From a cyanobacterium endosymbiont of Epithemia turgida isolate EtSB Lake Yunoko (lineage in GTDB: Bacteria > Cyanobacteriota > Cyanobacteriia > Cyanobacteriales > Microcystaceae): a stretch of 32,000 nt of DNA. The notes beneath the pieces are model-generated. The model searched no databases, was not told where the DNA came from, and saw only the letters and a program-made list of their open reading frames with translations. The translations under genes and the position numbers were made by a program. Shown piece after piece: positions 3,027 through 29,900 of this stretch. The number at the start of each line of letters is the position of its first letter. Position 1 is the stretch's first letter. The stretch covers positions 510,001 to 542,000 of the forward strand of contig NZ_AP012549.1 in assembly GCF_000829235.1 (NCBI RefSeq), given 5' to 3'.

Positions 3027-4072
3027 AAATATAACCTAATATGTTTTGGATGGTATAACTTAACACTCCAACGGTTTAGATAATACTAGCATTAAATGCT
3101 ATCATTTTTCAGGGAATAAGGCACCGATGATTGACCACTAAAAGGATGCCTTAATTAATAAAAATTCTAGCTTAACAATTAAGTCTAATTTTTATAGTCT
3201 AATTGAGTTAATTTGATAACAAATAGTGATATTATATTCATATGATTTAGACTGCTATCTGAAAACTAAAATTTTATAGAATAAATACAATATTTTAAAA
3301 CGTGAAACTATCCATAAAAATGATTGTGGGTAATTTGTAATTTTTATTGTTATTATTAATAGTGTTATTATGTTATTTTTTTCTAGACTTTTAAAGAAAA
3401 AATAGACATTGTTAGCATAGAAGTAGCTAGTTTATGTCCTTTTTGATTCTTGTTTTCTTCTAGTTTAAGTTTATACAAATTTACATTATGGTAACTACAG
3501 TTATCAATAGTTACTTGATCAAAATCTTATATTATTGCTATATAATTATTTTTTATATCTTAGAGACTACCGTGGTAAGTGCCAACTCAATAAAAATTAT
3601 GCCAAACTAATTACGCTTCAGCTCTTTATTTTATTTCCTAATACATTTTGATATTATCTAATTTATGATTAAGCTATTTTACCATACAAAGCTTATATAC
3701 TAGTACTTTATTATATGAAATTATTAAAAAGCTATAGTAACCTATTTTGATTTTAGGAAAAAGAGAGATGTTATTAAATTAAAACTACTTTAATGCTTCC
3801 TTATATGTTCTTATTTATATAATTTATATACTTACTCGTTTATCTAAATAAACTCACATTCTGTAATATTTTTTTTCTTTAATTTAACTATAGTGATTTT
3901 ATTAGTTGTCAAGTATTTAAATTTTTAATATTTTCTATAAATTCTTGATTACTTATTTTATTTAGCTGAATTTTTAATGCCACTATTTTAAACTTTTTCA
4001 GATTTTATTATCTTACATGTTTAAGTGCATGTTCTTTTATTTTTAAGTCAACTTAATTCTTTTGTGAGTTTG

Positions 4073-4125
4073 TTTATATCTTAAGATTAAGTCTCATGTG
4101 ATGAGACTTAATCTTAAGATATAAA
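4073..4125. repeat. Perfect inverted repeat (25-bp arms, 3-nt spacer gtg)
   Basis: Arms tttatatcttaagattaagtctcat (4073-4097) and atgagacttaatcttaagatataaa (4101-4125) were checked base by base. All 25 pairs are complementary, and the match breaks at 4072/4126. Confidence 0.95.
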
Positions 4126-5353
4126 GCTTTTTCTACTCAAGGTCAATTGATCGTAGTTAATTTATAATTTTGATGAAATTTATTGATGACTTTACTAGAA
4201 TAGAAAAATTAAAGAGTCATGTTGTTTTTTAAAAAAAACTATACCATTACTATCTCTTCTAAGCTATGAATAATAGATAATATTTATTCCGTCTAAATTT
4301 AGAACCTCATTCATTAAACTGATTAGAGGATTTGATGCAGTTGGTATAAACTAAGTGAAAATTTTAAGTTTCATATAATTTGATTCAAATATTAAATATC
4401 TCGGAATACCATCTATAATGGTAATTATAGTTTTTAATAAACCTATAAGTGATAATAAAACTTTAGCTTTTGGTTTTTATTAAGCTAATAATAGCATAGC
4501 AAATTTTAGGTTTTATATTATATTATAAGCTATCTATTTATCATTATTATTAATATTTTATAATTTATAATTTTATACAAATAAAATTATAAGTAAATTA
4601 ATTATTTTATAAAAATAATTTTTAGTTTATTTTTATAGCATTACAGCGAATAATTCTCTAAAAATATTATCTGTTTAAATAAATATTGGCTATTCAATAG
4701 ATACATTAGATTGCCCAATAAGACCTTTAGTATAGTAAAATCGCTGGAACTATGTCAAACTTAAATTTAAAATTTTGCCAAAGAAATATTAATAGTTGTA
4801 TTCAATAAGTTTTAAAATTAAGGTTAATTTTAAATATTTTATAAAAGATAAAAAGCTATTTCTCTAAGTTACTAGAATTTTGATAAAGTCATTACTAAAG
4901 ATAAAAATAATTTAATTTATAAAATAATTTTAGACAGTGGCAGTGACATCTTATAATTGGTTCTCTCAATATAGAATAAATTTTTAAACAACAATAAAAA
5001 ATTTGCATAAATTAAAGCTTAAATAAATTTCTTTGTAAGTTTACAAATGTTATAAAAATACATAGCTTAATAATAAAGAGAATACAAAACTACACAAGTA
5101 GTTTTAAAAACTGTTTTAAAAACTATTCATCTTAACCTTTATCTTGCTATTTAAAATTTATTTGTAGCTACTATTTTTAGTTATTAAAAATTGGCTTTCA
5201 TCTTTTATGAAATCAATTTAAAATCCATAAAATGTGGATATAGTTTAGAATTTGTTTATTTTTTAAAAAATTAAGAATCATCATACATGATAAATTCTGG
5301 TTATTAAAACTAATGGCTAATCTAGTTTTCAGAAAATATTAATTTTAATAAAA

Positions 5354-5377
5354 AATAATTATGCTAGCATAATTATT
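5354..5377. repeat. Perfect 24-bp palindrome with no spacer
   Basis: aataattatgct|agcataattatt is self-complementary over all 12 pairs, with gctagc at the centre. Confidence 0.9.
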
Positions 5378-5780
5378 AACATGATAAAGGACTTAATTTT
5401 ATCTTTTTATCGAAAAGTAATGACTGGCAAATAGTTCTAGAAAGCACTATTTTTATTTAGTTTATTTAAATTATTTTTATTACTTGCTTTACATTCAATA
5501 TTTTTTGTCAAGTTAAGTTGATGTAAAAATTAGATCTATAAGGTTATCAATTATTATCGTTACTTTTTTAAAAAAATATTAATATTGATATTAATTTTAT
5601 TACCATTAATGCTTTTACTAAAAGTTCGAATATTAACCTAGTAGGATCATCAGCCAGTTTTGAAATTCGAGGTTTGACAGTTACCTTTGTGGTACAGTAA
5701 TTCTCTGAACAACTATTTGTTTTCTTGAATGAGTTCTGTGACCTCAGTTCTAGATATTAAAATCTTAGATTTAATACGTA

Positions 5781-7187: not shown

Positions 7188-7689
7188 AGCTAATTGTGAT
7201 TCTAATTTCTTTTAGTTTAAAGGACATATGGAAAGTATAGGATGCGGGAATAAATAACCTTTAAATATAAAAATAAACAATAATTTAGTTCTTGTTTTAT
7301 TAATACCTTTAGTTAAATTTTCATTAATCGCTTAAGCGGTGGATTTGCTAAAAAAATGTCAACGCTTAATCCACATACCTATATTGTTTATAACAAAGAA
7401 TTCCTGACTGCAGGTTTTGTTTTTTGGGATTTAAATGTCATATAAGGAAGTGTTTTTGTCACTACTGTGAACATAGTTACATTAAAATCAAAGCCATGAA
7501 ATATTGCATTATCAGAGTGCACCTTATTTTTTACCACATTTTTACCTTGGTCATTTTCACTATCTCTTAAATTTTGTCAATATTTCATTATAGTAGTCAT
7601 CAAGTTTGCTTTATTAGAAACATGGACACAGAAAACCTTTAAAGGACTCAATTTTATTAATCCTACCATAAGTTTATTCATGTAGTTCT

Positions 7690-8960
7690 GCCTTGGCTTT
7701 CAGTTTACTTGTGAGTGTTCAGACCCTTCAAGCTTCTTATTGTTTCTAAAAAGTTTTTGTTCATAAAATTAGTATTACTTTGATCATTAAAAGTATTTCA
7801 TTGCATCCACTCATTCTACAACTGATAAACTTGTTTTAAATCGGTGTTATCGCTCATTTTTTTCTTATAAATTCTATTAGAATAGGGAAATAGTTTTAAT
7901 GCCACTTCCAAGGATAGATTTGAAAGTAACTCAAATCTTGACATCGTCAGCTTCTGAGATATCCAAGATATTTTAATTATCCTCCCTAGCCTCCTTCATC
8001 GCCACTGTTTTTATAATTTATTGATACTTCTTTGGTAATTTACTCCAAACAGGTTCATTAATTGGAATTTTTAAAATTTTGTCTAATTTTGACTATACTC
8101 GATAGTAATAATGAGAATTAACTTTAATTTTAGCTTAGTTTTTTACCCTTAATCAGCGACTATCCACCCTACTGTATTGATCGCTTTTTTATCTAGAGCT
8201 AGAAAAATTTTCCCTGGTAAAACTTAAACATCAATCCCGAAACTGGACATCATCTCACCCTCCAACCCAGAAATATACATTTTTAACTCTTTGAGATCTC
8301 TTATCGACTTAACTTTTATTTTAAACTATCTCCCATTTTTGCCCCATATTACTAGTCGGGAAATTAATCACATTAAAATCAGCATAAAATATGTGCATAC
8401 CTTCTAGTTCACTTCCGTGATACAGCCAAGAAATGTATTGCTGACAACTTAACTCAAAAGGCATAGACTTCCCAAACTCTAAAACTAGATTGTTGCCTAT
8501 GTGCCTATGTAATAATGACTTGCTGTGTATCTACATTCAACAGTAAAATACTGTTGAATGTAGATACACTATAACCTTAGTGTAATTTTTTCCTTGCATA
8601 AGCAATAGGCAGCAATGGTAATCTTTCCTTTCATCATATCCAGAACTCGATTGCAAACTGTTTGCACTCCCCAAAATTGTATGGAGAGACTTAGTCCAAC
8701 TGGTGGTCACTTCTAGCAAAAACAGGGAAGCTGTTTCTGGTCACTTCTTCTGAGCTAGATCGAGCATCACAAGAGTTAAAAATCATAGTAGTGGCAGCTC
8801 CCAATTCAACATTACTAAATAGAAGATCGGCGTTTCGTTTATATATGGATAAATTATCAAGAGGTTTATGACTAAATTATTCTTCAGCTATAGTTATCGA
8901 CTATGTTAAAGTTTATCTTGATTTATAAGTTTCCTAACCAAATTAAATGAAAGGTTGGTA
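7690..8960 (-). pseudogene. Decayed TRAP-type transporter periplasmic solute-binding protein (DctP family); boundaries approximate
   Basis: Minus-strand hand translation gives fragments in several frames, interrupted by stops. They are LLFSNVELGAATTMI (~8780-8830), TSWTKSLHTILGSAN (8660-8704) and EFGKSMPFELSCQQYISWLYHGSELEGMHIFYADFNVINFPTSNMGQKW (8324-8479). Further fragments are IKVKSIRDLKELKMYISGLEGEMMSSFGIDV*VLPGKIFLALDKKAINTVGWIVAD (~8150-8319) and INEPVWSKLPKKYQ*IIKTVAMKEA (~7990-8065). These follow the order and pattern I remember for DctP-like TRAP binding proteins (..VPF.L......W.Y.GGG..L..E....FPGGNTG.QMGGWFRKEI....DLKGLKMR..G......LG..P....GG.I.PALE.G.IDA.EW.GP..). Confidence 0.55.
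8525..8569. repeat. Perfect inverted repeat (21-bp stem, 3-nt loop) inside the TRAP-binding-protein pseudogene
   Basis: gtgtatctacattcaacagta (8525-8545), aaa, tactgttgaatgtagatacac (8549-8569). All pairs were checked, and the match breaks at 8524/8570. Confidence 0.95.
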
Positions 8961-9054
8961 TTGTCTAGCAACAGGTTTTTATTTATTAAATAATCCTGAA
9001 ATCTCTGTTAAAATGTTCTGAACATATAACTTAACTTTTTTAAAAAACATTCTT

Positions 9055-10563: not shown

Positions 10564-12751
10564 CATCTCGAAGAATTCTAGTCTTTAGGTAAGCATTGTT
10601 CAACTTATTTTCATTGATTGAACTTTAGTAATTACTCACAAGTTGATTGTTTATACAAACAATACTAATTTTTTATATCCAATTATAACCTAGCAAACTG
10701 AAATTTGAAACTTTAGCTACTTGTAATTTTAAATGTTATTAGCTAAGGTAAGTTGAACTAATGTTGTTATCTGAGCATAAATGCTTTTATCCGCGGATAC
10801 AAGATTAATAGTGTTTTTACTTTTTTAATTTTTTGACAGAGTTATGGAATAATAACAGTTGACAATAGATTTAACAAAAGTGCTACACACAGAATTCACA
10901 ATATTTAGAAAATTTTATTTCTTGGATATACAGTAGATAAAAAAACAACCCATTTTTTTAAAATTTTTATCAACTTTAATTAAGAGAATTAATGTCTTCG
11001 TAATATTTTCAATATTACAGAAATAGTCAACATTGATAGTTCTATTAAACTGGTAATGTTAAATTAAATAGTTAAATCTCAAGTCAAGAAACTTTGGAGT
11101 TAAAAATAGACTAAATTTTTGAATCTATGAGCTTTTGTTTCAATCAACTTCAACTTATTATTAATACTGTTTACCGTTCCCTAAATTGTTCTTTAGTCAG
11201 AACAGATAATAAATTCTATAATCCAATGTTTAGCCTAATTGTTTCACGAGTATTTAGCTACAATAAATAAGTTTTATGACACATATTAGTTAAGTTCAAT
11301 AGTCATGATATTAAATATTAATTTTTATTAAAAATATTTGTTTATTGATATTGAATTTTAAAAAATAAACCTAAATTAACTTTTAATTTTTTTGTAATTA
11401 TTTCTATCCCTGATCTACTTATTCGATTTCTTTTCGCAGTATTCTTGATATCACTATTTAAAGTCTCTTGAATTAGTTTTTTTAAAAATTTTTAGTATAT
11501 GTTATCTTCTTTTAAAGAAAATTAACTTTTCTATAAATTTATTTTTATGTTAATTAAATCTAATTCAACGAAAATTAATTATGATATGAACGGTTGTCTT
11601 TGATTAAAGTAATTCAATAATAGTTAATTTATAAATATAAAGTCTCTAAGAGATGAATTTTTTTAAAGAATTTTAAAAAATAGTTTAAAAACTTTTATTA
11701 ATTTATAAACTTTTTAAAAAATATTAAAACCAATCAAAATTAAGGCTAGTGGATAGAATATCATAGGCATAATTTTACATTTTTTTGCAAAATAATAGAA
11801 AAAATATAAATCATCAATATATATTATCTAATAAAAGTTTATATGCTCATATTAAAGTAAAAAATAAACCTAAAAAATAGAAATAGATAATTTTTAAACT
11901 TTTTAAAGTAAACTTTTAAAAAGTTTAAAAACCTAAAAAATCTACATTTAAAAGCCAATATAGATATATGTTTTTTTCAATGAACTTAGAGCAGGATTGA
12001 AGCTAATCTCGTTTAAGAAAGATAAACTTTTTCAAAGATACTACAAGGCTATAAATAGTCATATACTTATGAATTTATTAAACTTTTAACAAAAAAATTT
12101 TATAATATAAGACTCAAAGAGGAAATATAAAATAGTTGAGTTTAGTTTATGAATATTTGATTAAGAATATAGCTCTATCTAAAAAAAGTTTTATTGATAT
12201 AAGATAATATAGTCTAGTTTTAGAGCAAAAAGAGAAAAATTTATTTAGCAATTACTAAAAAGTGTTTGCTGGGTTTCTATTTATAATTCAAGCCAGCATA
12301 AAGATTATAGATGTTAATATGCAAGCCTTGAGTCAATGAGTATTTTTGAACAATTAATGAAATGAAAGAAGTATTACTGAATCGTTATCATATATTCAAT
12401 AAAATAAAAAAAATTAAGAATATAACTTATTTTAATTGGCTAAATTTTCAATTTCTTTTTCTAGGAGAATGTGTCCGTCGCATTTAGTATCAGACAATAA
12501 GTAAAGAAGTTGAAAGAATTGTAGTATATTTTTATAATCGATTTTCCTAAGTAGTGATCGAAAAAATTAATCAAGAAATTAAATTGATTATAAAAGATAA
12601 GCTTATAGCTGAACTAACTTCGAGAGGTTTAGAAAAAAAAAGAAGAGTTTGATTAAATAAGTATTTCTCCTATAAACTTATAACACTCAATATAGAAAAG
12701 CTTTATTCATTAAGATCTTTTGAGTTAAACCGAAAAATTAGAGTTAAACAA

Positions 12752-17619: not shown

Positions 17620-18277
17620 TTATTTTAGACAATAGAGGTAATTTATTGATTTCCTGTTTTCTTGAAATGCTACTATCAATAAAATTTTAAAAATAGCAGA
17701 GGTAAGTGTTAATATCCCTTTGCAACCTTATACTCTAATCTGAGGCATACTAGTTTTAGCTAATATTTTTTGTGAGTAAACTACAGAAACAAAACCAACA
17801 GAGTAATCAATAATCAAGGTTGATTTTACTTTAGAAGTGACCAATTCTTTACATAAAGCTATTAAAGCAGTGGGGACATTTCCAATTACATAAATAGATT
17901 GAGGATATTGGTTAAAACAATTTAACAATCCAGTTTCGGTATGAGGTTTTCCAGGTAGGGCGTTGCTGACTTGTTCTATAGCAGCAATAATAGTATTTTG
18001 AAACGTTTTATTGACTAAAGTAAAGATTCCTTGTTTAACTATTGTAATATCGGTTACGATAGTCTTTACTTTTGGGCAAAAATTTGATGGTTTTAGTAAT
18101 TGCATCAGGGCTAAATTTAAGTAAATCAATAAAATCAAAATCTGTGGTAGAATGGATAACACGACGAGCAATTGCATACTCAAATTTATTAAGATTACAA
18201 TCTCCAACTTCACGATCAATAATCGCAAAACTTTTTTTAACAATTGTATGATTAAATTGTTGATTTATTTTTGGCAA
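17620..18277 (-). pseudogene. cobH: Precorrin-8X methylmutase, inactivated
   Basis: Two overlapping ORFs in different frames carry the N-terminal and C-terminal parts. The N-terminal ORF is 18035-18277: ..SFAIIDREVG..YAIARRVIHSTTDFDFIDLLKFSPDAI. The C-terminal ORF is 17728-18243: ..KTIVTDITIVKQGI...SIYVIGNVPTALIALCKELV..KSTLIIDYSVGFVSVVYSQKILA. The frame switch is at about 18070-18085, in short homopolymer runs. An in-frame TAA at 17728-17730 interrupts ..PQIRV*GCKGILTLTSAIFKIL, where I remember ..P.ItvrGrkGGS.vAaAivNAL. There is no ATG start; the ORF begins with TTG. Confidence 0.8.
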
Positions 18278-21194: not shown

Positions 21195-22075
21195 TTATAC
21201 TAAATCAGATTTAGAGTAATTCAATGATGATGTTAGAGTAAGAATTGTTCTTTGATTCAAGCTACTGCTTATGATGATCTGTCTTTGATGATTTTTGACA
21301 ATCGCCTCAGCAATAGCTGATCCTAAACTAGATTCTTCTGAACTTCGATGAATATGAGACCGGTTAAAACGATATAAACGGTCCAATAGATGAATTTTAG
21401 GGTTTTCTAAAATGCCTTTACCATTATCTTTAACAGCAACCTGTTGTAGGCGAACAAGATGGTCGCGCTTGATTAGTTCTTGTCTCGCCTTTTTTATTGA
21501 TGCTTTGGTTTTCTTGACGTTGGTCATATTTTTTCCTTTATCTAGGTTGCGCTAAAAACAAAAGGTTATTGACCATATTTCCTAACTGTTAAGTTAAGTT
21601 AAGTATCCTACTACTTCGAGCTGTCGTTGTTGCATTTAAAAATCTGTTTCAAAATAAGCTAAGTCTATCTGAACATTAGGTTGAACGATGGCGATGGGGC
21701 TTCCCAACTTATTAAAAGCATCGGTAGCAGATTATAATTATTTAGGATTTTAGGCAAGATTCCCAGGCAGGTTCGATCACCAGCTTTAAAAGGAACTTGA
21801 GTAATAGCCCTCACCATCCTAATCTATACTCAATAGCTGGATAGATTTAATTATCTTAAACTAGGGATAATTTGCTGTTAGATATTTTAATACATAACGA
21901 TTACGGTCAGTCTTTTGAGTAATTTCTTCTGAAGATGTGAGCGCCTTCCATAAGTGTTTCAGGATATTGTAAATCTAGTTTACTAGATAAATTCTAACGC
22001 AGAAAAAGACCTCTCTTACAAACAGTAACAACAGGATAGCTGTCACAGCAGTATATCAAATCGCTAAACGAGTGA
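21195..22075 (-). pseudogene. Sensor histidine kinase remnant (TM / HisKA / HATPase_c), heavily decayed and shortened; 5' limit approximate
   Basis: The 110-aa ORF at 21195-21527 carries a degenerate HATPase_c domain (VAVKDNGKGILENPKIHLLDRLYRFNRS...SSLGSAIAEAIVKNHQRQIIISSSLNQRTILTL; compare D.G.GI....IF.RFYR.D.S...G.GLGLAI...IV..H.G.I). Upstream on the minus strand there is an H-box remnant SATDAFNKLGSPIAIVQ (21681-21731), in which the phospho-accepting His has been lost. Further upstream is an N-terminal TM remnant RLAI*YTAVTAILLLLFVREVFFCVRIYLV (21981-22070). Stops and frame changes separate the pieces. Confidence 0.65.
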
Positions 22076-24052: not shown

Positions 24053-25615
24053 CTACTCATCAAGAGATTTATCTTTAACTTCGCGAACAATACGGAAAAA
24101 TTCATTTTTTTCATCGATAGTAATTCGAGTAGGAGAACCACTGATGATGCCTTCGTAATTACGGAATGAACCCTTAATTCTTGGACCGCCTTGATCAATA
24201 GTGTATTCTCGAATCCCTTTATCATGCCAAGACCCTCGCATTTTAAAGACATTAATCGCTCTGGACATTTTCCCTCTAATTTCCACATATTGCAGCATGA
24301 GAATGGTATCAGTAATGGTGGAAATATGAGATTCCGTAATAGAATGAGAACCCATAAATTTATCAGTTGTGTTGGTAAAAAACCCTGTTATTTCTTCTTG
24401 TTTTGCATAACCTGTTACCTCAATTACAAACTGACGAAAGGCGTTGTGAGTAACTCCTCTTGCTAATGCTGAGAGAGAATCAATAGCAATTCGTGAAGGT
24501 TTAAATTCAGAAATCTCTGATTTAATGATCTGTAAGTGATCCTCCAATCCTGCAGATTCAGGATAGCTACATAATAATTTCAGTAGTCCCTTCTGTTCCA
24601 TTTTTTCAAAATCAATTCCCCAGGAAAAAGCATTTCGAGATAATTGGGCATGAGACTCTTCATAAGCAAATAAAATTGACCTTTCTCCTTGACTACAACC
24701 TTCTTCCAAAAACTTATTTACCAGCAAAGTTTTACCAGTTCCTGTTGCTCCAGTTACCAGAATAATTGAGTCTTTAAAAAAGCCTCCTCCACACATTTCA
24801 TCAAGAGTTTCAATTCCAGAAGAAGCTCGAGTATTTGAAGAACGCTGAGTAAGTCGCATAGCTCCTAACGGAAAAATATTAATTCCATCATTAGTAATGG
24901 TGAAAGGATATTCTCCTTTCATATGGGTTGTCCCGCGCAATTTAAGAATTTCAGCTGTTCTTCGACGACGTTCTCCTTCTAAAACATTTCGTAAAATGAC
25001 TACATTATCAGAAACGAATTCTTCTACCCCAAAACGAGCGATTTGCCCGTATTCTTCCACCCGTTCTGTAGTCATAATTGAAGTAACCCCTAGGAGTTTT
25101 AACCGTGCTACTAAACGGAAAATCTCTCGACGTACCACGGATGCTGCATTATATTGTTGAAACACTGCCGTTACTGAATCAATAGAAACGAGTGTTGCTT
25201 TGTACTTGTGAATTGCATACTGGATACGTTCAATTATAGCCGAGAGATCAAAACTTCCTACCACTTCTTGTCCATCAGGATCAGGGGAAGCATCAAGAAT
25301 AAATAGTTGACCCTTATCAATAATTTCTTGTAAATCCCAACCAAAACTATAGGCATTTTGAATAACGTCTGCTGGCGATTCCTCAAAGGTTACAAATAAT
25401 CCCGGATAATCAAAATATTTAATCCCATGATAGAGAAACTGAATTGCTAGTAACGTTTTACCAGTTCCTGATGTTCCACTAACCAAGGTGGTTCTTCCAA
25501 TGGGAAGTCCGCCATGGCTAATTTCATCAAACCCTTCAATCATAGTCCGAATCTTACAGACTCCTTTAGGAGGTAGTTTTTTTGGTATTTGCCTATTAGG
25601 AAGCGATTCATTCAT
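24053..25615 (-). CDS. kaiC: Circadian clock protein KaiC, apparently intact
   Basis: 520 aa with ATG at 25613-25615. It has duplicated RecA-like halves with both Walker A motifs (GTSGTGKT, GATGTGKT). Both catalytic EE pairs are present (VTFEES, FAYEES), as is the phosphosite context ESHISTITDTILMLQYVEIRG. The C-terminal A-loop/tail region is IISGSPTRITIDEK. Confidence 0.97.
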   Translation of the reverse strand: MNESLPNRQIPKKLPPKGVCKIRTMIEGFDEISHGGLPIGRTTLVSGTSGTGKTLLAIQFLYHGIKYFDYPGLFVTFEESPADVIQNAYSFGWDLQEIIDKGQLFILDASPDPDGQEVVGSFDLSAIIERIQYAIHKYKATLVSIDSVTAVFQQYNAASVVRREIFRLVARLKLLGVTSIMTTERVEEYGQIARFGVEEFVSDNVVILRNVLEGERRRRTAEILKLRGTTHMKGEYPFTITNDGINIFPLGAMRLTQRSSNTRASSGIETLDEMCGGGFFKDSIILVTGATGTGKTLLVNKFLEEGCSQGERSILFAYEESHAQLSRNAFSWGIDFEKMEQKGLLKLLCSYPESAGLEDHLQIIKSEISEFKPSRIAIDSLSALARGVTHNAFRQFVIEVTGYAKQEEITGFFTNTTDKFMGSHSITESHISTITDTILMLQYVEIRGKMSRAINVFKMRGSWHDKGIREYTIDQGGPRIKGSFRNYEGIISGSPTRITIDEKNEFFRIVREVKDKSLDE

Positions 25616-25689
25616 TGTTGATTTATTGATTCTTCTTATTTAAAATTAACGATAATTTCATATACAAATATATGTAAGTTGCTCTTACT

Positions 25690-26033
25690 ATATATTAGCA
25701 AATAACATGGAGATTTTTTTTGTAAATTATCTTCTCTTTCTTTAATTTTTTCATAAAAAAGATATAAGCCAATAATAACTTTTTCTCTATCTGAAATATC
25801 GCCTATAATCTTACGAACAAGGAAAAATAAAATTTTAGTTAAAGTGGTTTTTTCTAAAATTTTATTTTCCTCAGGTAGTTGAGGGTTTTTAGGATATCAA
25901 TAACTTTGAAAGCATAAACTCCTTTAAATTTATCTTCAAGACTATTTTAAAGTATTTTAAAAGCTCTGACACAGTTAGTGGTATTGCCTGCTACATAAAG
26001 CTTAAGACCATAGGGAATTTTGAATTTTTTCAT
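25690..26033 (-). pseudogene. kaiB: Circadian clock protein KaiB, inactivated (premature stop plus frameshift); 3' limit approximate
   Basis: From ATG at 26031-26033 the minus strand reads [48 protein letters not shown], with a TAA at 25947-25949. Only after a -1 shift at the 5-nt homopolymer (T5 on the + strand, 25886-25890) does it continue [46 protein letters not shown]. Compare my remembered KaiB: ..[83 protein letters not shown]. Confidence 0.88.
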
Positions 26034-26340
26034 CGGCTAAAAATCAGGAGATTTTGATATAAAGAATATTGTTTAAAAATATTTTTTTACTTCTGTAGAT
26101 CAGCTACAATAAAACCATAATTAATACAAACTTCAGGTCTTATTTTGCAAGATTATTAAGGCTTATAAGACTTGTTTTTTAGAAGAAATATAGTTTCTAT
26201 TTTTATAGAATGAAGTTAAACTAAAAGTTTTATAAGTTATTAGTAATTAATTTATCGTACTTAATCTAGAAGAGCTAATTTTTTTATTTCTCAAAAAGTC
26301 TGGGATGGTAACAATGCCTTTATATTTTTGGTAAAGTTAA

Positions 26341-27225
26341 TCAAACATAAAGATTTTCCCTGGGAACTGAGCAACGATACATTTCTCCCAAATGTGCTAA
26401 AACATCAATGATAGTGAAGCGGTAATCTAAAAGAATTTCATCACTGCGGCCTTCTATCTTAAGCTGCTGAGAAAATTCGTCTATTAACTCCATATGAATT
26501 TCTAAAATTTTAGAAATTGCAATATTGGCAAAAAAAGCTTTGTTCACAAACTGATCAATAAACTGGTTAATTTCAGTCTCATCACTAAAGTAATTAAGAA
26601 CAATTTTTCGATATTTTTTAGTTAAATAATTAATAAGTTCTTCTTGCTGTATTTTGGAAATATTTCGAAAAAAATATCTGGGATTTCTCTTGTAAAACAC
26701 TCCTAAATAGCCCAGTCTTTCCTTGAGCTTTTTTGCTAACCGACGTTGTTGTAAGAGCACAAAACTTAACTGTTTATCAGGAACTAAGACTTCGGGCAAA
26801 GAAACTGGACTTTTTGTTAAAGAATAACTTGGTCCCAAACGTAAAAATTGCGCAATAGCTAGATCAAGAGATTTTGCCATATTATCTAAGGTCGTTACTG
26901 GCTGTCGTACCTCCGCACTATGATAGAGACACGCTAGGGTTCCAACTTTATCTGGAAAAACGTCTGTATCTAACTCTGGTTCAATAATAACCACCGGAAG
27001 TAGGATTTCTTGTTCGTAAAGTTGATTAAATAAAGAAGAGACCGTAGTATCTCGGAAAATAACGAGACAGTCAATTTGTACGTCACGACTGTTTACTAAG
27101 TCGAGCAACTCCTGAGAAGAGTCAACTAGTTGAATAAAATAAGACGTACTGCTCAGAATATTTGTCAAATACTGGGCAATATGGTGATTACTGATATAGA
27201 GACAAATTGATAATCTAGATTGCAA
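26341..27225 (-). CDS. kaiA: Circadian clock protein KaiA, full length with a non-ATG (TTG) start
   Basis: The 294-codon ORF ends at TGA 26341-26343. An N-terminal pseudo-receiver-like half (QSRLSICLYI...IDCLVIF) precedes the conserved C-terminal KaiC-binding half. That half reads LLQQRRLAKKLKERLGYLGVFYKRNPRYFFRN...IVLNYFS...IDQFVNKAFFANIAISKILEIHMELIDEFSQQLKIEGRSDEILLDYRFTIIDVLAHLGEMYRCSVPRE. Confidence 0.9.
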   Translation of the reverse strand: MQSRLSICLYISNHHIAQYLTNILSSTSYFIQLVDSSQELLDLVNSRDVQIDCLVIFRDTTVSSLFNQLYEQEILLPVVIIEPELDTDVFPDKVGTLACLYHSAEVRQPVTTLDNMAKSLDLAIAQFLRLGPSYSLTKSPVSLPEVLVPDKQLSFVLLQQRRLAKKLKERLGYLGVFYKRNPRYFFRNISKIQQEELINYLTKKYRKIVLNYFSDETEINQFIDQFVNKAFFANIAISKILEIHMELIDEFSQQLKIEGRSDEILLDYRFTIIDVLAHLGEMYRCSVPRENLYV

Positions 27226-28420: not shown

Positions 28421-29900
28421 ATGCTGACTCTAAAACAATTTCTTCACCCTGTCCCGATTTGTCAATATTCTATCACCATTAAAGAGATTACTACCCTATT
28501 TCGCTCAGGGAAGTATGAGGGGCTAGTAATAGTAGATTGTGCCTAAAAGCCATTAGGTATGGTCTGTGTCCATTATCTTCTTTCTTTACTCCTAAAACAA
28601 TCTTTTGAGGCTATGCCTTCGTCGTTTAGGGTTTTTCAAAACGATAGTCAAGTATCTCAATCGTTGATGCTAGATAACCTAGAGAACTTGTCAATTCCTG
28701 TAGTACTTATTCCTTATGACTTAAAAGTAATAGATTTTTTTGCCTATTGACAAGACAAAAATATTGACCGAAGAATTTCTCCCACCTATGGACTTGTAAA
28801 TGACAGTGGAGATTTTCAGGAACTTCTCGATAGCTAATGCTAAAAGCTTTTTTAACTCAAACTCTTCCTATTACCCCTCAACCGTCTTTATTATTCACCT
28901 ATCGTTACTGATCGAATTGTTAGAGCAATTTCCCCTACCCGTTCCGTTACAAACACAACAGAAAAACATGATACAATAAAATTACTTGTGGCGTGAGCCA
29001 ATTGAGAAGTTAATTCTCTCCAATAATACTAGTGTTTGCTTCTTATCAAGTCAAAAATTACAATTCCTTTCGGATCAAGTTGTCGCATTGGCCCAAACTC
29101 CCACCTTTTACTTTCCTTCCCCTACTACTTAGCAGAGGGGTTTTCTCTAACAAGTCACCCTTCTTGTTCTCAATGGTTTCAATCTGTTCCTGAAAAGCTT
29201 AAACCTCAATATTTTCTAACCGATACCAATTCTTTACATTCTCTTTTGCCTTCTCCTAGTTCATTAATAGAGTATAATCTGGGCAAAGAAAGAGTTTCGA
29301 CCATCGTATTCGTGAAGGCGATAATATCGAACAAGTCCAAATATTAACTAAATGTTTGGCAAGTAGATGTAGTAGTCTTACATGAACGTTATCTTGATGA
29401 TCCAACCGATTAGGTGCAATCACTTTCTAAACAACTCAGACTAGCTGAGTTACTCTTAGTCACCCTAGACCTAAAAACAACCAAAGCAGCCAATCGAGTT
29501 AAAAATCCATCTGTTTTTCCTTGCTTAAATCCTTGAAATCAGCAAAATATTTAGCAATTATGGCAGGTAATTTATATTGCTGCCTCAAGTACCCTTTAAG
29601 ATCCCTAAGTAATAAGGTACATAGTGTAAGGCGGTTGATCAACTCCTTCGATGAATTCCCAATGAGTTAATTGGGTCTTTAGCTCCCGCGCGGAGTACCT
29701 CATGGTATAAACAAAAGAGAACGCATCGAACTGTAGAGGAATTTCGCAATATCTTAGGTCTGAGATGAAAACACACTCAAGGCTCGGCGACTAAAGCTGA
29801 TGAAAAGTTGACGATACTGACTGTGGAGGTATTTGGGTGGGATAGATCAATAGGAGTGTTTTGTATCTATAAAATATAGTTGAAATAGCAGGGTTTTATG
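28421..29900 (+). pseudogene. Large sensor histidine kinase remnant (CBS-like N-terminus, sensory region, degenerate H-box), 3' part deleted; limits approximate
   Basis: From ATG at 28421 the + strand reads MLTLKQFLHPVPICQYSITIKEITTLFRSGKYEGLVIVDCA*KPLGMVCVHYLLSLLLKQ.., a CBS-like pattern with an in-frame TAA at 28544-28546. Later fragments, separated by stops and frame changes, include IELLEQFPLPVPLQTQQKNMIQ*NYLWREPIEKL (28911 onward). Around 29490-29560 there is QPIELKIHLFFLA*ILEISKIFSNYG, which resembles a HisKA H-box (..LK.EFLA.ISHELKTPL..I.G) with the His lost. No HATPase_c region fits before plsC at 29943. Track ORFs 28559-28750 and 29036-29347 are fragments of this remnant. Confidence 0.45.

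Follow-up and report, generated by a model that had tools for sequence, protein, structure and literature searches.

What remains of a circadian clock when one of its three core proteins is lost and the other two are kept? This question is raised by a stretch of 32,000 nucleotides (nt) from the genome of the cyanobacterial endosymbiont of Epithemia turgida (EtSB; contig NZ_AP012549.1, positions 510,001 to 542,000), hereafter referred to as the window, in which intact kaiA and kaiC genes flank a kaiB pseudogene. No biochemical oscillator is better understood than the Kai clock, and the only well-studied natural simplification of it removes, to our knowledge, KaiA. EtSB is a spheroid body (diazoplast), an obligate, non-photosynthetic, N2-fixing endosymbiont under genome reduction. 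A previous, sequence-only reading of this stretch had considered either a decaying clock or a repurposed KaiA-KaiC pair. Between these, the data presented below favor the second in the following form: at a probability of roughly 0.6, the EtSB clock would have been reduced to a retained, non-oscillating KaiA-KaiC-SasA signaling module in which KaiC is locked on and drives SasA. Simple decay of the whole clock is disfavored, since kaiC is under selection and SasA is intact.

A tblastn search with the KaiB sequence of Synechococcus elongatus recovered the EtSB kaiB remnant as two pieces that are collinear but lie in different frames (26012-25887 and 25890-25729; E=2.5e-25), with the start of the remnant at an ATG at position 26033. 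The remnant was then aligned at the nucleotide level with eight orthologues. The in-frame TAA at codon 29 is located where nine orthologues possess an AAA (Lys) codon within the motif ..K(T/M/I)LKNILE... The 1-nt deletion lies within a run of five A (A5), the context of which reads ..GAT GTx CTA AAA AAC CCT.. in intact orthologues; nine orthologues displayed six A at this point, and adding one A to the EtSB run restored the KaiB frame. In addition, the conserved PPPVR motif has become FFLVR. These three observations, and the claim that kaiB was dead by independent lesions, had been made in the sequence-only reading and were all borne out by the alignment; a further lesion, the loss of the native stop codon, had been missed there. 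A KaiB gene (Pfam PF07689) is expected to be an uninterrupted open reading frame (ORF) of ~102–108 codons under purifying selection, and that of EtSB is broken in at least three ways. The locus therefore fails to provide an intact, expressed KaiB able to bind the CI domain of KaiC and to sequester KaiA.

The endosymbiont of E. adnata (EaSB; CP076462.1) was found to carry the identical 1-nt deletion in the A run, but to have AAA at codon 29. This endosymbiont was sequenced from a different host and by a different group (PMC11131595), and its reads (SRR25945676), when assembled independently by Logan, displayed the deletion as well. Since the frameshift is common to both endosymbionts, it is older than their split, and the TAA arose later and in EtSB only. 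Moreover, the occurrence of the same frameshift in two independently sequenced endosymbionts excludes a sequencing error, which removes the doubt that had been raised over the kaiB lesions. The kaiB of EtSB is a real and old pseudogene.

To follow the decay of the gene, substitutions were mapped by parsimony on a neighbor-joining tree of ten endosymbiont genomes and an outgroup, kaiB being counted after restoration of its frame. On the branch shared by the E. turgida and E. adnata endosymbionts, kaiB exhibited a ratio of non-synonymous to synonymous substitutions (N:S) of 22.5:3.5, the neutral expectation being 3.5, and a rate of 0.084 substitutions per site, compared with a synonymous divergence (dS) of 0.056–0.094 in four neighboring genes. 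Because the rate equals the neutral dS and the N:S is neutral or higher, kaiB must have evolved neutrally for essentially the whole of the shared branch. The terminal branches gave N:S values of 12.5:3.5 for EtSB and 3:0 for E. adnata, and intact endosymbiont kaiB genes showed 0–4.5 non-synonymous to 5–9 synonymous changes per branch. Approximately 35 amino acid replacements have accumulated in the EtSB remnant, with changes at residues that are invariant over ~50 cyanobacteria (e.g., D91Y, and PPP to FFL). These results showed that kaiB was inactivated by the 1-nt deletion near the base of the EtSB/EaSB branch and has drifted neutrally since. It was also observed that the remnant acquired 16 substitutions on the EtSB terminal branch and 3 on that of E. 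adnata (25720-26033 vs. L060 5583-5896), compared with 10 and 10 in kaiC and 5 and 9 in kaiA; this asymmetry may be due to chance or to a local mutational effect.

The same counts bear on the explanation that the locus reflects an artifact of sequencing or assembly, or that slippage on the A run yields a functional KaiB after all. The frameshift does sit in a homopolymer, and poly(A) slippage rescues frameshifted genes in insect endosymbionts. However, the run is just five A in length, the deletion recurs in the independently sequenced endosymbiont of a second host species, EtSB carries the in-frame TAA and the lost stop codon besides, and the corrected frame has evolved neutrally with replacement of invariant residues. 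We reject this explanation, and programmed frameshifting is excluded as well.

Could the oscillator be working with KaiB from elsewhere, be it a KaiB-family paralogue of the endosymbiont or a protein imported from the host? Free-living Crocosphaera subtropica and Rippkaea possess several copies of kaiB and kaiC, spheroid bodies keep one extra gene for a 'KaiB family protein', and EtSB KaiC has an unaltered B-loop, the binding site of both KaiB and SasA. This explanation is nevertheless very improbable, given that conservation of the B-loop is equally explained by SasA binding, that Schmelling et al. (2017; PMC5520375) detected no KaiB among the EtSB proteins, that the extra KaiB-family gene is listed as 'pseudogene?' in EtSB, and that a second kaiBC operon is absent from the diazoplasts of E. 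clementina, Rhopalodia gibberula, and E. turgida (Moulin et al., 2024, Table S2; PMC11070190). Within the 32-kb window, tblastn with S. elongatus KaiB revealed no second kaiB copy, and the literature searched gave no pointer to an import of clock proteins. With no KaiB possible, the canonical three-protein oscillator cannot run.

The KaiC protein of EtSB, on the other hand, presented every feature of the double-domain KaiC that a KaiABC oscillator requires. The Pfam KaiC ATPase model was matched twice (E=6e-124), and comparisons with KaiC structures in the PDB gave E values of ~1e-270 to 1e-277. Both Walker A boxes, both catalytic EE pairs, the phosphorylation sites T426/S431/T432, the arginine-finger triplets of CI and CII, the B-loop and the A-loop are intact and identical to those of relatives with an intact clock. 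On the three kaiB-less branches (shared, EtSB, and EaSB), kaiC displayed an N:S of 23:40, corresponding to a ratio of non-synonymous to synonymous rates (omega, dN/dS) of ~0.17 (p=7e-12 against neutrality); when only the terminal branches were counted, with that of the R. gibba endosymbiont included, the N:S was 6:19 (p=3e-8). When neutral substitution was simulated at d=0.09, the kaiC ORF remained open in 0.35% of the runs. Thus, kaiC is under strong purifying selection after the death of kaiB. Since this selection persists although the canonical oscillator cannot run, KaiC is still doing something that matters.

KaiA likewise matched two Pfam models over their full lengths, KaiA_N (residues 5–132) and KaiA (residues 169–290), and aligned with PDB KaiA over its full length (E=1.6e-66); both the N-terminal pseudo-receiver and the C-terminal KaiC-binding domain required of KaiA in a KaiABC oscillator are present. 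On the kaiB-less branches, kaiA gave an N:S of 33:24 (omega ~0.38; p=3e-4 against neutrality). The shared branch alone gave 25:18, as compared to 19:12 for the housekeeping control rsmH, the omega of which was 0.47 there, and in the neutral simulation at d=0.09 the kaiA ORF was open in 2.7% of the runs. These data showed kaiA to be under selection along the long shared branch, and the recent branches hint at its relaxation. With regard to the sequence-only reading, its description of kaiA as full length with the C-terminal KaiC-binding domain, and of kaiC as retaining both Walker A boxes, both EE pairs and the phosphosite context, agreed with the domain matches and the motif alignment. The dN/dS check of kaiA and kaiC that it had proposed as a sign of whole-clock decay argued against such decay for kaiC, and hinted at relaxation for kaiA on the recent branches only.

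Two models have been deposited for the 5' end of kaiA, with BAP17209.1 (275 aa) starting 19 codons after WP_044105889.1 (294 aa, TTG start). Sequence comparison favors the longer model, since the other spheroid-body KaiA proteins are 293–295 aa in length and align from residue 1.

Decay of the whole clock would mean that no kai gene is functional, kaiA and kaiC having simply not yet been struck by disabling mutations. The genome is shedding genes, as exemplified by the pseudogene of an 843-aa kinase in EtSB and EaSB and by a truncated cbiC, and there is an excess of clock-protein residues unseen in free-living relatives: 20 in EtSB KaiC and 17 in EaSB KaiC relative to 51 free-living sequences (2–7 in other endosymbionts), and 29 in EtSB KaiA (18–20 in other endosymbionts). 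Furthermore, the omega values of kaiC and kaiA are 2.2–2.5 times higher on kaiB-less than on other endosymbiont branches (Fisher p=0.004, 0.008). A relaxation specific to the kai genes was rejected, though, because the neighboring genes rsmH (0.39 vs. 0.20) and DUF4168 (0.42 vs. 0.18) showed the same, approximately two-fold rise in omega; the presence of this rise in the control genes indicates stronger drift throughout the lineage, and the excess of odd residues matches it. Together with the rejection of neutrality by kaiC, both overall and on the terminal branches, a chance of <1e-3 that both ORFs would be open under neutrality, and an intact sasA, this makes whole-clock decay highly improbable, and for kaiC such decay is rejected.

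SasA was searched for with a SasA gene found in a Crocosphaera locus. The EtSB protein (WP_044107092.1, 394 aa) contains the KaiB-like N-terminal domain (PF07689), HisKA and HATPase_c, and the H-box HDLRSP and the ATP-binding boxes are kept. Full-length SasA was also identified in the endosymbionts of E. adnata, R. gibba, and R. sterrenbergii and in uoEpiScrs1. Both EtSB and the E. adnata endosymbiont have a SasA with several changes: R has become C in the motif MNRLITD, which is invariant elsewhere, one residue has been inserted (HDVLLLQ), and the KaiB-like domain reads IFVGSN where TLAGSN is expected. These changes agree with the lineage-wide rise in amino acid replacement. On the strength of these comparisons, the KaiA+, KaiB-, KaiC+, SasA+ set is best described as one maintained by selection and not as a snapshot of uniform decay.

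How might such a set operate? In S. elongatus, KaiA drives the autophosphorylation of KaiC, phosphorylated KaiC stimulates SasA, and the phosphatase activity of CikA needs a KaiB ring on KaiC (Welkie et al., bioRxiv 10.1101/283812). The sequence-only reading had expected a system locked in the hyperphosphorylated state, which is a reasonable prediction from this biochemistry. By analogy, as EtSB has KaiA but no KaiB that could sequester it, its KaiC would become hyperphosphorylated and would keep the SasA kinase engaged on the B-loop of CI, and the KaiB ring would never be assembled, such that CikA, the RpaA phosphatase, would never be activated. As a consequence, the dusk/night program would be the constitutive output, comprising sugar catabolism, the oxidative pentose phosphate pathway, respiration and nitrogenase. 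A permanent night metabolism would suit a heterotrophic N2 fixer living on host sugar, with timing set by the host. KaiA and the KaiA-binding tail of KaiC may now be relaxing too, and the lineage is perhaps moving towards the KaiC+SasA-only state of UCYN-A.

Several observations weigh against this model. First, S. elongatus without any of kaiABC still contains ample phospho-RpaA (Welkie et al., bioRxiv 10.1101/283812), and KaiC may not be needed for RpaA output at all. Second, KaiC carries replacements at otherwise invariant residues (R322H, G399E, and N390H, plus E449K in EtSB) that could alter or cripple its activity. The full set of lineage-specific replacements comprises L127I, A287V, R322H, N390H, and G399E, with S300N, E449K, S507F, and G512E in EtSB only (KaiC numbering in the window is that of S. 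elongatus plus one). The sites of N390H, G399E, A287V, and L127I are 96–100% conserved among the 51 free-living sequences, and R322H corresponds to R321 of S. elongatus, a position at which the exchange R321Q is known to alter the period (PMC7205874). Third, the KaiA arm of the model may already be failing or loosening. On the three recent kaiB-dead branches kaiA gave an N:S of 14:6, which does not differ from neutrality (p=0.24) and exceeds that of the control genes (9:15; p=0.04) and of kaiC (6:19; p=0.003), and three of the six KaiC replacements that postdate the EtSB-EaSB split fall within the KaiA-binding C-terminal tail (S507F and G512E in EtSB, E505K in EaSB; binomial p=0.004). Finally, the N:S counts are small and come from parsimony on a hand-built tree.

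The third of these points also sustains a different explanation, in which EtSB is in transition towards a UCYN-A-type system of KaiC, with or without SasA. KaiA would be purposeless and drifting, KaiC would function without stimulation by KaiA, for example as an ATPase or hourglass-like sensor of host energy cycles, and the intact kaiA ORF would be a relic and the next gene to be lost. Consistent with this are the near-neutral kaiA counts and the KaiC tail replacements given above, six non-synonymous and no synonymous kaiA changes on the R. gibba terminal branch, and KaiA replacements at invariant sites, of which D234N and L270F are found in EtSB only (L156V and R285C are shared). There is also the precedent of UCYN-A, a related N2-fixing endosymbiont that has KaiC and SasA and lacks both of the other Kai proteins. 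On the other side, kaiA was as constrained as rsmH on the shared branch at a time when kaiB was already neutral, it is open in both descendants (a chance of ~3% under the neutral simulation), both of its domains match their Pfam models in full, and the recent counts are very small. We hold this transition to be possible, though on balance unlikely, and retain the KaiA-KaiC-SasA module with KaiC locked on as the preferred reading.

The loss of kaiB is not confined to EtSB and EaSB. In the R. gibba endosymbiont (CP067995), kaiB begins with ATG ATC AAC TTT TAA, a nonsense mutation at codon 5 (L001 7187-7201); the accessions of its KaiC and KaiA are consecutive and no KaiB protein is annotated. 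The TAA was present in six of six RNA-seq assemblies inspected (L069-L074), and 34 Logan blocks index the truncated 78-aa ORF. Since these assemblies stem from RNA-seq runs of the strain, the locus is transcribed. Two environmental metagenome assemblies (L079, L080), slightly different in sequence, contained the same TAA. The endosymbiont of R. fuxianensis, the sister of R. gibba, has CAA at codon 5 and an intact kaiB of 104 codons; it was scored from Logan assemblies (L076/L077), and a genome record with broken-looking gene calls (L075) was left out. On the tree, E. turgida and E. adnata form one sister pair and R. fuxianensis and R. gibba another, which indicates that the EtSB/EaSB and R. 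gibba inactivations were independent. An intact kaiB was found in the endosymbionts of R. gibberula, R. sterrenbergii, and E. clementina/R. musculus and in uoEpiScrs1. The kaiB and kaiC of the R. yunnanensis endosymbiont (L066 5354-7897) were left unscored; they appear broken only through a run of N that crosses part of the kai locus in the record.

UCYN-A has neither KaiA nor KaiB (PMC5520375, PMC8139342) and keeps a full SasA with the KaiB-like domain, just as the spheroid bodies without kaiB have retained theirs. In the R. gibba endosymbiont, diel transcription was reported to be damped, in a paper that left the cause open and did not mention the kai genes (PMC11131595). This is the one spheroid body with published damped diel transcription, and it is kaiB-null; the damping fits the model of constitutive output.

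Comparison with known Kai systems places the EtSB locus as follows. With the canonical KaiABC loci (S. elongatus PCC 7942, and the first kaiABC of C. subtropica ATCC 51142 and Rippkaea orientalis PCC 8801) it shares the kaiA-kaiB-kaiC order, the KaiC motifs, a two-domain full-length KaiA and SasA, but its kaiB is a pseudogene, such that KaiA sequestration, a dephosphorylation phase and CikA activation would be missing and no self-sustained oscillation is expected. The intact kaiABC loci of its sisters, i.e., the endosymbionts of R. gibberula (RgSB), E. clementina/R. musculus (EcSB), R. sterrenbergii, and R. fuxianensis, and uoEpiScrs1, are orthologous and syntenic and, as in EtSB, represent one kai operon; unlike EtSB and EaSB, they keep a kaiB of 103–104 codons under purifying selection. 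The spheroid body of R. gibba, a close relative, resembles EtSB in having a dead kaiB with kaiA, kaiC, and sasA intact, but its CAA to TAA change arose independently and far later, its kaiB has no frameshift, and the gene body is still nearly intact. UCYN-A (the nitroplast, Candidatus Atelocyanobacterium thalassa) is likewise a Crocosphaera-related N2 fixer that lost kaiB and kept KaiC and SasA; in contrast to EtSB, where a selected or recently selected kaiA and a kaiB remnant persist, its kaiA is lost as well and no remnants have been reported. The KaiBC timer of Prochlorococcus is also a natural simplification of the clock under genome streamlining, but the loss is the opposite one (kaiA lost, kaiB kept), and its KaiB-KaiC hourglass chemistry would be impossible in EtSB. 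Laboratory kaiB-null mutants of S. elongatus have the same KaiA+ KaiC+ KaiB- genotype and form the basis for the arrhythmia and high KaiC phosphorylation predicted here; whereas these are engineered, short-term states of a phototroph, that of EtSB is long fixed in a heterotrophic endosymbiont and was followed by later changes in KaiC.

The sequence-only reading regarded KaiA plus KaiC without KaiB as an unknown configuration. This was wrong, as it is in print: Schmelling et al. (2017; PMC5520375) mentioned the 'kaiA-containing cyanobacterial endosymbiont' (EtSB) as one of only two out of 94 cyanobacteria without kaiB, and Moulin et al. (2024, Table S2; PMC11070190) entered the KaiB of EtSB as 'pseudogene?'. 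Dvornyk and Mei (2021) mentioned two strains that have a truncated KaiA and KaiC and no KaiB. The supplements of Schmelling et al. (2017) and Abresch et al. (2024) contained nothing on Epithemia kai genes. Hence it is already known that EtSB has kaiA and kaiC without kaiB, and this tempers the interest of the finding. As far as the searchable literature shows, the new elements are the shared frameshift, the order of the lesions, the neutral decay of kaiB set against selection on kaiC, kaiA, and sasA, the R. gibba nonsense mutation, and the parallel with UCYN-A.

The features of the locus and its surroundings are listed in Table 1. All seven of the window proteins tried were exact matches to deposited EtSB (AP012549) proteins; BAP17208 (KaiC) and BAP17209 (KaiA) are consecutive accessions with no CDS annotated in between. 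The slot between kaiA and kaiC in EtSB is 725 nt long, with 24% G+C and a longest ORF of at most 28 codons. It has the same length in EaSB, versus 728–731 nt in four genomes with an intact or nonsense kaiB; that of R. sterrenbergii, at 663 nt, is an exception, with a gap of ~64 nt inside the kaiA-kaiB intergenic region. In an alignment of seven endosymbiont genomes, the last ~40 nt before the kaiC ATG (..TTATCGTTAAT.TT.AATAAGAA.AAT.AATAAATCAACA ATG) were near-identical. The kaiBC promoter region, presumed from the S. elongatus kaiBC operon to lie within the kaiA-kaiB intergenic region, would now serve kaiC alone. The kai region is collinear with that of four other spheroid-body genomes, at 82–88% nucleotide identity. 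Among reference genomes, the closest KaiA proteins are those of spheroid bodies of rhopalodiacean diatoms (82–87% identity), and identity beyond these was 71% for the free-living SU2, 60% for Cyanothece UBA12306 and ~54% for Crocosphaera.

Table 1. Positions of the kai genes, the kaiB lesions and neighboring features within the window.
Feature	Position	Strand	Remark
kaiC	24053..25615	-	intact ORF of 520 codons; identical to BAP17208.1 / WP_044105888.1
kaiB-kaiC spacer	25616..25719	-	from alignment; 3' end before the kaiC ATG conserved among spheroid bodies
kaiB pseudogene	25720..26033	-	314 nt vs. 315 nt for the intact gene including stop
Native kaiB stop position	25720..25722	-	now CAA; TAC in the E. 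adnata endosymbiont
FFLVR codons replacing PPPVR	25813..25827	-	PFLVR in the E. adnata endosymbiont
A5 run with 1-nt deletion (frameshift)	25886..25890	-	A6 in every intact orthologue; older lesion
In-frame TAA, codon 29	25947..25949	-	EtSB-specific secondary lesion
kaiA-kaiB intergenic region	26034..26340	-	length conserved
kaiA	26341..27225	-	intact ORF of 294 codons, TTG start; = WP_044105889.1
kaiA 5' end, alternative starts	27169..27225		BAP17209.1 vs. WP_044105889.1
843-aa hybrid histidine kinase pseudogene	28421..29596	+	adjoins kaiA
110-codon ORF	21195..21527	-	end of HATPase_c
171-codon ORF (CbiC profile)	17728..18243	-	N-terminally truncated
ORF-poor stretch	3027..5780		no ORF >=90 codons
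ORF-poor stretch	7188..9054		no ORF >=90 codons
ORF-poor stretch	10564..12751		no ORF >=90 codons

The window has a G+C content of 32.5%, with long ORF-free stretches and pseudogenes nearby, features that fit a genome in active reduction. Three ORF-poor stretches of 1.9–2.8 kb between the housekeeping genes gatA, tldD/pmbA, and ftsY are probably what is left of heavily degraded genes. Neither an Rfam nor a tRNA scan of the window gave a match. Upstream of kaiA and adjoining it lies a pseudogene that derives from an 843-aa hybrid histidine kinase (HisKA, HATPase_c, REC) and in EtSB contains stops, frameshifts and a deletion of ~435 codons; the E. adnata copy is full length with many stops. Intact copies are carried by R. 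gibba, R. gibberula, E. clementina, R. sterrenbergii, uoEpiScrs1, and the free-living SU2. The gene died in the same lineage as kaiB. The kinase was not called CikA, as only HisKA, HATPase_c, and REC were recognized and the best NCBIfam match was HrmK-like and far under the cut-off. The 110-codon ORF, which holds only the end of HATPase_c and for which several assemblies still have a gene call, was considered and rejected as a SasA remnant, since it represents the end of a 462-aa membrane sensor kinase, intact in the free-living SU2 (L024 8498-9886) and degraded in the two endosymbionts compared, those of E. turgida and R. gibberula. A 171-codon ORF covers positions 61–176 of the 196-position profile of CbiC (precorrin-8X methylmutase) and is probably another pseudogene, of the cobalamin pathway. 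This pathway has been treated in both spheroid-body genomes and is reported to be in use in the R. gibberula endosymbiont (PMC5638926).

In EtSB, it is the antagonist KaiB that has been removed, and selection has retained KaiC, SasA, and, at any rate until recently, KaiA, which makes this organism a natural experiment on a non-oscillating KaiC. A broader proposition, which we offer tentatively and consider doubtful as it stands, is that KaiB loss is a repeated and possibly adaptive step towards an N2-fixing organelle, taken at least twice among the spheroid bodies of diatoms (in the E. turgida/E. adnata ancestor and in R. gibba) and once more in UCYN-A. Without KaiB, the output of KaiC-SasA(-RpaA) would be frozen at dusk/night, with sugar catabolism, respiration and nitrogenase permanently on and timing left to the host; in EtSB, the KaiA-KaiC pair would then represent a 'clock locked on' module that evolved naturally and is under selection. 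That kaiB was lost three separate times among Crocosphaera-related N2-fixing endosymbionts suggests that dismantling of the clock is a regular part of host integration, and its loss offers a concrete candidate to explain why diel transcription is damped in the R. gibba endosymbiont. The existence of kaiB+ (E. clementina, R. gibberula, and R. fuxianensis) and kaiB- (E. turgida, E. adnata, and R. gibba) sisters makes this idea directly testable.

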